The translations under genes and the position numbers were made by a program. From an uncultured Lichenihabitans sp. (GTDB lineage: Bacteria > Pseudomonadota > Alphaproteobacteria > Rhizobiales > Beijerinckiaceae), in NCBI GenBank assembly GCA_964243405.1, contig CAXTFJ010000005.1, forward strand, positions 9,882 through 73,881: a stretch of 64,000 nt of DNA. Direction: 5' to 3'. The notes under the pieces were generated by a model that did no database searches, was not told the origin of the DNA, and worked only from the letters and a program-made list of their open reading frames with translations. Positions 56,211-62,391 of the stretch are shown here, in pieces. Within the stretch, counting starts at the first letter, position 1. Each line of letters begins with the position of its first letter.

Positions 56211-56295
56211 GCGGCCATGGCGGAATTGGTAGACGCGCTAGCTTGAGGTGCTAGTGGGGAGACCCGTGGAGGTTCGAGTCCTCTTGGCCGCACCA
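56211..56295 (+). tRNA. tRNA-Leu(GAG)
   Basis: GCGGCCA acceptor stem, CTAGC-TT-GAG-GT-GCTAG anticodon arm, long variable arm, GTTCGAGT and CCA. Confidence 0.97.
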
Positions 56296-56303
56296 CTCTG
56301 ATT

Positions 56304-57410
56304 TTATCCTATTGTTTTCATTGACGTTTTGTCGCTCGCTCCCGCACCTGACAATGAGGTGCGGGAATAGAGGTCGCCCGTTCGTTCTCCGGCGGACATC
56401 TTCGACATCGCTTCGATCGCAAGCCGACGCCTGTTGGCCGCCCGCGTGTAGAGCGCCGCCATGCCGCCGCCGTGCCAGCCGAAGATGGCCTCGAGCTGCG
56501 CCTCGCTCGCGCCGTTCTCAGCCGCGCGCGTCGCGCCCAGCTTGCGCAGGCCGTGAGCCGATCCGCTCACCCCTGCCGCGTTGCACGTGTCCCGGAACCA
56601 GTTGCCGAACGACTCCTTCGTCATTGGGCGGCCACCCGCGCCGGTGATGAACGCGAGGTCGGTCGAGGGCGCAGCCGCAAGACTGGTCGCGAGCTCGGGA
56701 AGCACGGGCAGGACGACGACCTGACCGGTTTTCGCCGTCCGAAACGTGATCACGCCGTCCCGGAGATGCTGACGGCCGAGCTGCGCGAGGTCGCCGCGGC
56801 GCAGGCCGGTATAGAGGGCCAGATCGAACGCCAGGCGCTCGCGCGTGCCGAGAGGCCAACGGGCCTCGAAACGGACGACCTCGTCTTCCGTCCACACCTT
56901 GAAGCCTTCCGTGCGGGGCTTGACGGCCTTGACGCCCTCGGTCGGGTCGGTCGTCACATGATCCGCGCCATAGGCCCAGCGGAACAGCCCGCGCATTGCG
57001 TCGAGGAAATTCTTCGCCTGGAACGGCGTGTCCTTCCGGCGATCGACGCCCGCCTGCACGGCCTTGCGGGTAATGGCCGCGAACGGCTTGTCGCCCGATT
57101 GGTCGAGCACATGCCGGAAGATGGCCTCGCGCTGCTTGCGCGTCGCCATCGACAGAACCATCCACGCCTGGGTTTCACGGTAGCGTTCGATCAGCCACTT
57201 CAGCGAGCCGGTCGGCGCACGCTTGCTTGCCGTGGTCGGCAGGTCGCCGGCCACGGCTGCCCTGTAGGCTTCATCGAAGGCCGGAGTGCCGTAGTCCGCC
57301 TTGATCCGTATGCGCGGGCCCCGATTCACGCGGACGTACCAGACGAGCGTCCCGTGGCGTGTGCGTTCGTGCTGGAGGTGCGGAGGGCGGGGACGGGGCA
57401 TGTCACCCAT
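56304..57410 (-). CDS. int: Tyrosine recombinase/phage integrase
   Basis: YTGLRRGD (R), TAK (K), HGLRK (HxxR), FGW and ALYTR (Y); N-terminal arm-binding-like region. Confidence 0.95.
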   Translation of the reverse strand: MGDMPRPRPPHLQHERTRHGTLVWYVRVNRGPRIRIKADYGTPAFDEAYRAAVAGDLPTTASKRAPTGSLKWLIERYRETQAWMVLSMATRKQREAIFRHVLDQSGDKPFAAITRKAVQAGVDRRKDTPFQAKNFLDAMRGLFRWAYGADHVTTDPTEGVKAVKPRTEGFKVWTEDEVVRFEARWPLGTRERLAFDLALYTGLRRGDLAQLGRQHLRDGVITFRTAKTGQVVVLPVLPELATSLAAAPSTDLAFITGAGGRPMTKESFGNWFRDTCNAAGVSGSAHGLRKLGATRAAENGASEAQLEAIFGWHGGGMAALYTRAANRRRLAIEAMSKMSAGERTGDLYSRTSLSGAGASDKTSMKTIG

Positions 57411-57592
57411 CACAGCACGATGTCCTGCTCGGGCTCAACGCTTGTCCAGCGGCTCGTCTTGGTGCCGGGAGTGCGGACGATGCGGATCGTACCGTCCGGC
57501 GCGACCTCGACGGCATAGTCCGGTCCGGCTTGTTCCGCCGCCCGCAAGGCCCGGCGCAGGTCCGCGACGGTGAAGCGGGCAGGGCGGTTCAT
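57410..57592 (-). CDS. Excisionase-like small protein
   Basis: MNRPARFTVADLRRALRAA...VEVAPDGTIRIV; overlaps the int start, the classic RDF position. Confidence 0.65.
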   Translation of the reverse strand: MNRPARFTVADLRRALRAAEQAGPDYAVEVAPDGTIRIVRTPGTKTSRWTSVEPEQDIVL

Positions 57593-60177: not shown

Positions 60178-60546
60178 TCACCCGGGGCGGAGGAGCGCCA
60201 CTTCGGGCAGCTGACCTATCCGAGACGGCGAGACGCAGCGCTCAAGGGTCGAGCGCAGAGCCGCGATGGCCGCGACGCACTCCTGCTCGCCGAGACAAAG
60301 CTCCACGCACGGATGGGCGGGCTGCTCCACGACCGCGCGGCGTTCCGCGCTGTCGAACTTGCGCGCGATCGCCCGCAGCGCTTCGGCGATGGCTTGGGCC
60401 TGAGGTTCACCCAGCCAGAGCGGAACGTCGACCGGGTCGGAGTGGTCCTTCCGCGCGACCTTCAGCAGCTTGTCGATGGCGCTGGCGACCGTGCCAGCGT
60501 CTACCAAGGGCAGGGCGTCAGAGTGGGAACTGGGCGGGGGCAGCAT
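60178..60546 (-). CDS. Phage hypothetical protein (122 aa)
   Basis: GAGGG RBS; co-oriented with the early operon. Confidence 0.55.
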   Translation of the reverse strand: MLPPPSSHSDALPLVDAGTVASAIDKLLKVARKDHSDPVDVPLWLGEPQAQAIAEALRAIARKFDSAERRAVVEQPAHPCVELCLGEQECVAAIAALRSTLERCVSPSRIGQLPEVALLRPG

Positions 60547-60553
60547 CGCGCCC

Positions 60554-60739
60554 TCACGCCAGGATGATGCGGGCGCCGACGCCGCGGATGCGGACGACGC
60601 GGCCGAGGGCGACCAGCTCGCGCACGGCAGCCTCGAAGGCGTCGACGGCCATCTTGAGGGCGGACCGGAGCGGGAGCGTGCGGGCCTCGCCGTTGAGCAG
60701 GCGGAGGCGGGAGACGATCAGGAGGGCGTTGGGGGACAT
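60554..60739 (-). CDS. Small hypothetical protein (61 aa), first gene of the leftward early operon
   Basis: Lies directly downstream of the left operator pair. Confidence 0.5.
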   Translation of the reverse strand: MSPNALLIVSRLRLLNGEARTLPLRSALKMAVDAFEAAVRELVALGRVVRIRGVGARIILA

Positions 60740-60785
60740 GGGCTGGGCTCATCGCGGGTTAGTGACTACATTCCCAACTTGTCTT

Positions 60786-60817
60786 ATGCGTATGCGGATG
60801 TCAATGCGAACGCGGAT
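60786..60817. promoter_or_regulatory. Left operator pair (OL-like) flanking a minus-strand TTGACA
   Basis: ATGCG-TATG-CGGAT at 60786 and ATGCG-AACG-CGGAT at 60804; tgtcaa at 60799-60804. Confidence 0.75.
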
Positions 60818-61635
60818 TATTTTTCCGGGTACGAAATGTACAAGACTTTTCGCAGCCACACCGCCTTGATTCCAGAAACGGGGCCGCCCAGCGTAACTAC
60901 GGTGTGATGAGAGGTATTATCTGAATGGAACAGACGTCCAATAAATGATCTTCCATCGTCGAGCAATATCAAACTAAGCGCGCCATAAAGATCTCTGAAT
61001 AAAGATTTTTCTAATAAATCAATGTAGAATACACATGACTCATCTAAAATGGGATAATAAGAGCCATGATCAAAGACTAAACCAACCATGGTCCTTGTAA
61101 AATCTGGTGGTGCTTTTGCTAGAGAATGGCCCCACCCACCTTTGGCTTGGAGATAATCCTCTATCTCCTGCCTGTAAGCAGTTCCATCTTTAGATTTTTC
61201 GTCATCGTCTAAAATCCAAAACGTTCTTGCAGCATCCTCCATCAAATCTACTACGGGGTGAGTGCTTTTCTTTGTGCGTGATCCTAGAACCTTCTCAACT
61301 TCGTAGAAATTGACTTTGCCGCCGGCATCAACTCCACCAAGGACCGGAATATAGACTGGACCAGGCTTTTCCGACCAGCGAAATACGTCATTAAAGCCAT
61401 CTATCAGCCCAATCTCAATTCTACGCTCTTTAGAGAAAGACATAAGAGCTTGTAAATTCTCCAGCGTCGGCTCTGACCCGTTCTCCCAGCGAGATACGCT
61501 AGCTTGCTCGACACCAAGTTCTTGCGCGAATTCAGCTTGCGTAAGCTTCACGGCTTTACGAAGCTTCCTAATCCGCTCCGGCAGGCCTTGAGCCTCGTCC
61601 ATTTCGAATTTCGACCTTTTCATACGAAATAGCAT
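60817..61635 (-). CDS. CI-like repressor (XRE HTH + degenerate S24-like domain), AT-rich
   Basis: RIRKLRKAVKLTQAEFAQELGVEQASVSRWENG; IPVLGGVDAGG; start at 61635, 61623 or 61602. Confidence 0.88.
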   Translation of the reverse strand: MLFRMKRSKFEMDEAQGLPERIRKLRKAVKLTQAEFAQELGVEQASVSRWENGSEPTLENLQALMSFSKERRIEIGLIDGFNDVFRWSEKPGPVYIPVLGGVDAGGKVNFYEVEKVLGSRTKKSTHPVVDLMEDAARTFWILDDDEKSKDGTAYRQEIEDYLQAKGGWGHSLAKAPPDFTRTMVGLVFDHGSYYPILDESCVFYIDLLEKSLFRDLYGALSLILLDDGRSFIGRLFHSDNTSHHTVVTLGGPVSGIKAVWLRKVLYISYPEK

Positions 61636-61767
61636 ATACCGTCTCGGATTAAATCCCAATCCGCATCCACATAGCTTGAAGTGGTTCTCGCTTTTATATA
61701 TACGACGGCGGATAAGAGCGCCACGGTAGGATCCGTTGAACCCAATCAAGCACATACGTAAGCGGAT
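61636..61767. promoter_or_regulatory. Right operator array (OR-like), four copies of the ATRCG-N4-CGGAT motif
   Basis: Copies at 61636, 61659 (reverse orientation), 61700 and 61754. Confidence 0.72.
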
Positions 61768-61972
61768 TTTCGGCGTCCTCCAGCGCGACTTCGCGTCAGT
61801 GGCAGGCGTTTCACAGGGCACTGTTTCCCGATGGGAGAAGGGTGAGTTTGAACCCACCAGAGTTCAGCTCGCAAATATTCGGGAAGAGGCTCGTCGGCGA
61901 GGCCTTCCCTGGAACGATGCTTGGTTTTTCGATCCTACGCCGTCTCCCATTGCAGAAACTCCGACGATATGA
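61736..61972 (+). CDS. Cro-like XRE HTH protein
   Basis: QRDFASVAGVSQGTVSRWEKGEFEP; divergent from the CI-like gene; TTG start with GGTAGG RBS. Confidence 0.88.
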   Translation: MNPIKHIRKRIFGVLQRDFASVAGVSQGTVSRWEKGEFEPTRVQLANIREEARRRGLPWNDAWFFDPTPSPIAETPTI

Positions 61973-62391
61973 ATTCCTCCTTCTCGCCGGTCCCCGCCCA
62001 CCCCCCAACGGCTCAACCGGGCCCGATCCTGAACCGCCGCCGACTCCTGGCCTTCCTTGGCCTCGCGCACGCTGCAGCCCCCGCGCTGGCTAAGGCCACC
62101 CTGGGCGCGCCCGACAACTTCGGCTTCGCCGCCGCCCCCTCGGCCTTGGACCGGTCCACGAGCAACCTAACCCTCACGGTCGACCACGGCCTGGACTTCG
62201 AACGGTTTGAACGCATTCTTGCCGAAGACCGAGCACTGCTCGAAGCAGCAGGGTTGGGCGGCCACTTCCCCAAAGCGAGCGAGCCGTTTCCCTCAGGTGC
62301 GCAGAATGCGCCGGCTAAGCGGATCGGCTTCGACGCCGCCCCGGCGCCCGGCGCCGCGTTCCTGTTCGACGACGTCGGGAGCGGCCCGTGA
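61969..62391 (+). CDS. Hypothetical protein with a twin-arginine-like segment
   Basis: ATGA overlap with cro; NRRRLLAFLGLAHAAAPALA. Confidence 0.55.
   Translation: MNSSFSPVPAHPPTAQPGPILNRRRLLAFLGLAHAAAPALAKATLGAPDNFGFAAAPSALDRSTSNLTLTVDHGLDFERFERILAEDRALLEAAGLGGHFPKASEPFPSGAQNAPAKRIGFDAAPAPGAAFLFDDVGSGP

Follow-up and report, generated by a model that had tools for sequence, protein, structure and literature searches.

Organization of the immunity region

The window (the whole 64-kb stretch of DNA analysed here) corresponds to G000:C5:9882-73881 and contains the left end of an integrated element, marked by a tRNA-Leu(GAG) gene and the tyrosine integrase gene that directly adjoins it (Table 1). 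From the integrase, a leftward operon of unknown genes leads up to a repressor gene, and to the right of the repressor, as far as the contig end, lie a Cro-like gene, small ORFs, and genes for a DUF7146-Toprim primase, a VapE-like protein, and a DEAD-box helicase. The repressor, a protein of the CI type labelled P0001, has an N-terminal HTH domain followed by a linker with an Ala-Gly pair, an insertion of ~51 residues, and an S24-like core. The annotated start codon may not be the one in use; an alternative ATG at 61623 or 61602 may be the true start (the alignment with the P22 C2 repressor begins at residue 16).

Table 1. Coordinates of the features discussed in the text (window positions unless a locus is named)
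Feature	Position (strand)	Basis or remark
tRNA-Leu(GAG)	56211-56295 (+)	Left end of the integrated element
Tyrosine integrase, directly adjoining tRNA-Leu	56304-57413 (-)	Left end of the integrated element
Low-GC immunity cassette (repressor with operators on both sides, then cro)	60745-61975	Composition; ~1.2 kb
Two exact 14-bp operator-like sites	60786-60817	Overlapping or beyond the stop codon of the repressor, and a short way upstream of leftward gene 60554-60739
CI-type repressor gene (P0001)	60817-61635 (-)	272 aa as annotated; coordinates include the stop codon
Predicted S24-derived beta core, residues 164-268	60832-61146 (-)	phmmer, BLASTP and fold matches
Gly233 codon GGA (SFIGRL), general-base lysine column	60937-60939 (-)	Alignment
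Ser192 codon TCT (DHGSYYP), catalytic-serine column	61060-61062 (-)	Alignment
Unique insertion of ~51 aa, residues ~113-163	61147-61299 (-)	Alignment; two long low-confidence helices predicted
Ala104-Gly105, LexA/CI scissile-bond position, in IPVLGGVDAGGKVNFYE (VDAGG)	61321-61326 (-)	Aligned to the family motif VPVVGYVGAG
Cro/C1-type HTH domain, residues 22-65	61441-61572 (-)	Pfam HTH_3 1.9e-13; P22 C2 repressor 2.7e-5
Candidate operator cluster, repressor-cro region	61636-61767	Exact sites 61700-61713 and 61754-61767; one-mismatch sites 61636-61649 and 61653-61672
Divergent Cro-like HTH gene	61736-61972 (+)	78 aa; Pfam HTH_3 6.3e-7
Repressor of the Lichenihabitans MAG G030	L024:7544-8272, G030:C39 (-)	GC ~0.50; beside a Cro 52% identical to the window's Cro

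The repressor gene has a GC content of 0.451 and a GC3 of 0.43, whereas the adjoining genes range from 0.65 to 0.74 in GC and from 0.82 to 0.97 in GC3. Within the gene, GC is 0.505 in the HTH segment, 0.425 in the insertion, and 0.428 in the core, and the cro-like gene has a GC of 0.55 and a GC3 of 0.54. The GC content steps at ~60745 and ~61975, in each case within a few tens of bases, and both steps fall where the flanking genes end. Calculated from base composition, the probability that a frame of 272 codons would stay open by chance at 45% GC is ~2e-7, and we consider that coding has been maintained. The initial annotation had described a CI-type repressor, AT-rich against GC-rich flanks, and both parts of this description hold, the composition by the values above and the identity by the HTH_3 match, the S24-homologous C-terminal core (see below), and the adjoining divergent Cro.

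Searching the window for the near-palindromic pattern ATCCG-N4-CG-N-AT returned four exact matches, all four of them in the repressor module, and these 14-bp operator-like sites are absent from the related elements described below. Sites at either end of the repressor gene are consistent with a functional dimeric repressor acting over both early operons. The region has what is found in CI/Cro-type switches, namely an HTH repressor, a small Cro gene of the HTH type that diverges from it, and operator-like sites in several copies. Downstream of cro, the ORF at 61921-62391 (+) begins with a twin-arginine-like signal (RRRLLAFLGLAHAAAPALA) and has a 41% identical homologue in the closest related element (G015, see below); a secreted protein would be unusual in an early phage operon.

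The repressor is an orphan at the level of the whole protein. Its exact sequence forms a singleton cluster in NCBI/ENA, no close homologue was found among ~15 billion proteins, and a word-indexed search with the whole sequence returned the repressor itself as its sole match. A protein search of a phage database matched residues 18-117, that is, the HTH and the linker.

The C-terminal domain and its catalytic residues

Scans of the repressor with Pfam and PHROGs recognised the HTH as its sole domain, and a direct scan with Peptidase_S24 (PF00717) gave no match even at E ≤ 5. In an exhaustive phmmer search with residues 85-272 against 1.84 billion representatives, only three proteins were significant, among them P0002 (E 8.4e-7) and P0003 (E 4.6e-4), both of which are HTH-S24 repressors, with the motifs GDSM and VVFKRL in the former and GNSM and VYVKKL in the latter. 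P0002 itself matches PF00717, and a pairwise BLASTP comparison of P0002 with the C-terminal domain of P0001 gives 4e-15. The S24 homology of P0001 is therefore transitive, through the PF00717-positive P0002, and does not come from a direct Pfam match.

To place the catalytic residues, the repressor and 120 family members from a profile search were brought into one alignment of 121 sequences. The scissile Ala is present in 120 of the 121 and the Gly that follows it in 116, and the column of the catalytic serine holds Ser in every sequence, S192 of P0001 included. The general-base column holds Lys in 119 of the 121, and P0001 is the only sequence with Gly there. A family HMM built without P0001 reproduces this register, placing 'LvKkl' over 'FIGRL' so that the lysine falls on G233, and in the alignment of the Cro-linked modules described below, GRRFIKTI of the Phyllobacterium Cro partner aligns with GRSFIGRL of P0001 with the lysine in the same register. 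Near-invariant family residues around the serine are altered as well (R189->D, G190->H, L193->Y). Measured against the Peptidase S24 family, P0001 thus has the serine and the Ala-Gly pair and lacks the general-base lysine.

The spacing between the Ala-Gly strand and the core also sets P0001 apart, being ~60 residues in P0001 only and 7-10 residues in the other sequences of the alignment. No homologue of the insertion responsible for this spacing was detected in the exhaustive search of the 1.84 billion representatives, and neither Gly233 nor the insertion was found in any homologue. As judged from these alignments, the C-terminal domain is a divergent S24 derivative that keeps the Ala-Gly pair and the serine, is without the lysine, and carries a unique insertion. 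The initial annotation had read the same residues from the letters, with a retained Ala-Gly site and serine, a glycine codon (GGA) at the general-base position, and extra residues between the Ala-Gly site and the core. Each of these is borne out by the family alignment, in which A104-G105 and S192 lie in conserved columns, G233 lies in the lysine column, and the extra residues correspond to the segment of ~51 aa that is unique among the 121 sequences.

Self-cleavage of LexA and CI requires a Ser-Lys dyad, and Slilaty and Little reportedly found in 1987 that the LexA substitutions S119A and K156A abolish cleavage.

Structure models

Mean pLDDT in the AlphaFold2 models of the repressor is 77 over the full length and 74 in the model of the C-terminal part. 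The HTH is modeled with confidence, the core is beta-rich, the loop around Ser192 has a pLDDT below 50, and the insertion forms two long helices of low confidence. In a fold search of BFVD, the best matches were phage XRE/CI repressors (E 1e-5 to 2e-4, TM 0.40-0.57). When the C-terminal model was searched against the PDB, the sole whole-domain match, amid Sm-fold noise, was the C-terminal fragment of lambda CI (2ho0), whose E of 0.085 is not significant, and in the PDB fold search with the full-length model and the PDB sequence searches, HTH matches dominated. These fold searches give moderate support to an S24 ancestry of the core.

Cassette exchange and the related Cro-linked modules

A search with the adjoining 133-aa protein identified related elements in 13 other genomes, 12 of which belong to the same genus. 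The closest of these, G015, shares 59% identity with the left neighbour (o122), 41% and 62% with the right neighbours (o156 and o133, respectively), and 79% with the helicase. The corresponding slot of G015 is occupied by a Cro unrelated to that of the window and by a repressor of 146 aa that consists of an HTH only (GC ~0.6), and the DNA similarity between the window and G015 stops at 60413 and resumes at 62355. Exchange of the cassette, which the initial annotation had proposed, is supported because the related elements, in the same genus, combine homologous flanks with a different, non-homologous repressor/Cro pair in the same slot, and because the GC borders are sharp. On this comparison, the operators, the repressor, and cro form a mosaic unit that has been exchanged among related prophages.

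The Cro protein leads to a different set of relatives. Cro homologues with 51-57% identity adjoin repressors in other Alphaproteobacteria, and the Cro family was found beside repressors in 10 other loci. The modules identified by the Cro-based search come from Azospirillum, Afipia, Phyllobacterium, Aquamicrobium, Mesorhizobium, other Hyphomicrobiales, and one metagenomic contig. Among the eleven modules defined by Cro, eight have canonical repressors with Ala-Gly, Ser, and Lys, one has an HTH-only repressor, and the remaining two are those of P0001 and G030. The nearest relative is the P0002 module on the metagenomic contig (L030), in which the repressor is 32% identical to P0001 over the full length and the Cro 55% identical to the window's Cro, with the same divergent arrangement and similar intergenic repeats (AT-R-CG ... 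CG-N-AT). In contrast to P0001, however, P0002 is canonical, with the serine in GDSM and the lysine in VVFKRL; it matches PF00717, is without the insertion, and has a GC of 0.58. Since eight of the eleven modules, including this nearest relative, keep Ala-Gly, Ser, and Lys, the loss of the lysine in P0001 is a derived state, and by this distribution it arose within the family of Cro-linked modules.

The G030 repressor, from a Lichenihabitans MAG, has an HTH that is 44% identical to that of P0001 and a C-terminal domain that BLASTP shows to be homologous (2e-10) to the S24 type of Azospirillum. In this repressor, A-E replaces Ala-Gly, Gly replaces the catalytic serine, and Arg replaces the lysine, and an hhalign comparison of the family profile with it gave an alignment confined to the HTH through the cleavage-site Ala. 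Read in this way, G030 is a second, independent loss of self-cleavage residues in the same genus.

The genome of the window also encodes a canonical HTH-S24 paralogue, P0005 (L004:4817-5398; G000:C30), which has both Ser and Lys and adjoins a VRR-NUC-like ORF. The P0005 family is widespread in Hyphomicrobiales, mostly as proteins of ~189 aa, and P0005 could be either a conserved regulator of the host or the repressor of another prophage.

Extent of the prophage

The search for the right end of the element with 24 nt found no attR. A 16-nt search gave one candidate, a 15/16-nt copy of the tRNA-Leu 3' end at C55:24620-24635, where there is no tRNA, and by arithmetic ~0.1 such repeat matches would be expected by chance in this genome. 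Contig C55 (G000:C55:1-24635; L029, L028) encodes a Nu1/gpA terminase, capsid E, sheath, tube, tape measure, baseplate J, and Mu gp46/gp48; these make up a complete myovirus morphogenesis module, which ends ~0.9 kb before the attR-like repeat. The prophage, which starts at window position 56296, probably has its right end (attR) at the C55 repeat. The join of contigs C5 and C55 rests on the 15/16-nt repeat and is tentative; in an empty-site check of two relatives, the orthologues of the right flank of C55 were not beside tRNA-Leu. Because the morphogenesis genes lie on C55 directly before the attR-like repeat, the element is in all likelihood not a satellite but a complete prophage of the myovirus type whose sequence is spread over contigs. 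The initial annotation had likened it to satellites, a comparison that does not fit an apparently complete prophage with terminase, capsid, sheath, tube, and baseplate genes on C55, as far as the tentative join holds. The setting is that of an integrated temperate phage, with the tRNA-Leu and integrase at one end, the replication genes, and the C55 module.

Some further genes of the element deserve mention. Beyond the window, at L003:12580-13194 (G000:C5:78579-79193; minus strand), lies a second strongly AT-rich gene, which encodes a protein of 204 aa and has no Pfam or PHROG match. The N-terminus of this protein carries a zinc-ribbon-like motif (CxxC...CxxC), and the protein also has a hydrophobic segment and a tail rich in Lys and Ser. 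The AT-rich gene adjoins a gene for a 109-aa HTH protein (phrog_2104) at the contig end, and the two may be a moron or a defence/toxin-antitoxin-like pair. In the VapE-like gene, a short run of N (XXXX) at L003:9290-9300 (G000:C5) makes the frame appear as two separate ORFs, an artefact of assembly or masking and not a real disruption.

Predicted function and induction of the repressor

We propose, with a probability of roughly 0.65, that P0001 is a CI-type repressor conferring immunity for a temperate phage that has integrated at tRNA-Leu(GAG) of an alphaproteobacterium in the Lichenihabitans/Lichenibacterium group, that it cannot undergo Ser-Lys self-cleavage because its lysine is gone, and that the prophage would be induced by some other route. 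In the mechanism that we envisage, the repressor would dimerise through its S24-fold domain, bind the operators in that form, and repress both the leftward and the rightward early operons. The step that follows draws on the established Ser-Lys mechanism of LexA and CI together with the absence of the lysine: RecA-stimulated self-cleavage would not be possible, and DNA damage would probably not be a direct off-switch. If self-cleavage through the lysine is lost, derepression needs another route, for which the candidates are an antirepressor or protease encoded by the unassembled part of the prophage, by a co-resident phage, or by the host, or else dilution or degradation of the repressor. The helical insertion, which lies beside the strand of former cleavage, might offer a surface to such a partner or support additional oligomerisation. 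As a counterpoint to the proposed loss of cleavage, the retained Ser192 and Ala-Gly pair could reflect a residual or altered chemistry.

The initial annotation had named an antirepressor among the possible inducers. This part of its proposal found no support in the assembled parts of the prophage, where neither an antirepressor nor an ImmA-like protease was recognised by Pfam or PHROGs, small ORFs included, and where the alpha-type SOS box GTTC-N7-GTTC is absent from the element part of the window and from C55. One GTTC-N7-GTTC box was found at L003:12400, beyond the window and not upstream of a gene. With part of the prophage unassembled, the missing antirepressor and SOS box are weak evidence against an alternative route of induction.

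Several other explanations were weighed against this proposal. The prophage might be defective or permanently silent and the repressor a relic within it, with an S24 domain that is decaying and no dedicated induction route, as could be suspected from the repressor's orphan status, the many near-invariant family positions that are altered, the fragmented assembly, and the failure to find an induction factor. We regard this as unlikely, however, since the frame stays open over 272 codons in stop-rich, AT-rich DNA, the four exact operator-like sites are preserved, the HTH is well conserved, and the Cro, integrase, replication, and morphogenesis genes are intact. Another view, that the C-terminal domain does not derive from S24 and that the Ser/Lys alignment is a coincidence, could appeal to the missing direct PF00717 match and the non-significant PDB fold search. 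It is highly improbable in view of the phmmer (8.4e-7) and pairwise (4e-15) matches to the PF00717-bearing P0002, the identical register in four independent alignments, the BFVD matches to phage CI repressors, and the homologous Cro partner and gene arrangement shared with the P0002 module.

It is also conceivable that P0001 is still cleaved at Ala104-Gly105, either with another base (for example His190 or a lysine of the insertion) or in trans by a canonical S24 protein. The Ala-Gly pair and the serine are kept, conservation outside the HTH is highest in the cleavage strand, and the paralogue P0005 on contig C30 would provide a Ser and Lys pair for trans cleavage; Kim and Little are said to have described, in 1993, intermolecular cleavage for LexA, CI, and UmuD. 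Nevertheless, the near-invariant residues around the serine are altered too, the loop that carries it is predicted with low confidence, and the relatives have no conserved alternative base, so that we hold continued cleavage to be quite improbable. His190, two residues before Ser192, is the sole obvious candidate for a substitute base and an unlikely one, and we know of no precedent for trans cleavage between proteins that are only ~25% identical. A further reading, to which we give similarly little credence, takes the domain to be rebuilt as a sensor: the Ala-Gly strand and Ser192 would serve as a latch in the inactive cleft, and the two-helix insertion would dock an inducer or a trans-cleaving S24 partner. 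Were this so, the losses in P0001 (K->G) and G030 (AG->AE, S->G, K->R) would suggest selection in a lichen-associated lineage, exposed to UV and desiccation, with the uncoupling of prophage induction from a chronically triggered SOS response as the suggested selected trait. Our preferred reading remains that of a dimeric immunity repressor without self-cleavage.

Comparison with known repressors

Degenerate self-cleavage in phage repressors is already known, and the current view of lysogeny control is unchanged by our analysis; P0001 would join the known SOS-uncoupled CI repressors as a clean example from nature. Its particular features are that, of the Ser-Lys-Ala-Gly apparatus, the lysine alone is lost, that an insertion lies beside the former cleavage strand, that the cassette borders are very sharp in composition, and that a second, independent loss of catalytic residues occurs in the same genus. 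Its ancestry is directly readable, since the closest relatives with a homologous Cro keep the full apparatus, and the comparison of the elements shows an immunity cassette of ~1.2 kb moving among prophages of one genus. A question raised by such S24 domains is whether they are dimerisation relics or receptors for other induction signals.

With lambda CI, P22 C2, and LexA, P0001 shares the succession of an HTH, a linker strand with Ala-Gly, and an S24 core, as well as the column of the catalytic serine, and it also resembles these systems in its divergent Cro and in having operators on either side of the repressor gene. It differs from them by the Gly in place of Lys, by the helical insertion of 51 aa, and by the missing direct Pfam S24 match, and unlike them it is not expected, by its residues, to cleave itself. 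A second group for comparison is formed by N15 CB/AntC, Gifsy, and 186 CI/Tum, which are likewise phage immunity repressors that do not respond to RecA through self-cleavage, as we infer for P0001. N15 CB keeps a vestigial S24 fold. The N15-type repressors, however, have lost all catalytic and cleavage residues, whereas P0001 keeps Ser and Ala-Gly, and in contrast to N15/AntC-type systems, no antirepressor or LexA-controlled gene was recognised in the parts assembled here. Beyond the fold, the N15, Gifsy, and 186 families have no sequence relationship to P0001.

Repressors of this general behavior are common and well documented: many cI repressors do not cleave themselves and are inactivated by antirepressors or other proteins, as in N15 and in the Gifsy phages (PMC3121763), and 210 of 271 cI repressors were predicted to be non-autoproteolytic (PMC10432266). 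The repressor Rep021 of the mEpimmI coliphage keeps the catalytic site without the Ala-Gly pair, and its lysogens are reported not to be UV-inducible (PMC11893012). It resembles P0001 in being a CI-type HTH and S24 protein with a partly degenerate self-cleavage apparatus and is at the same time its mirror image, for P0001 has kept the Ala-Gly pair and the serine and has lost the lysine.
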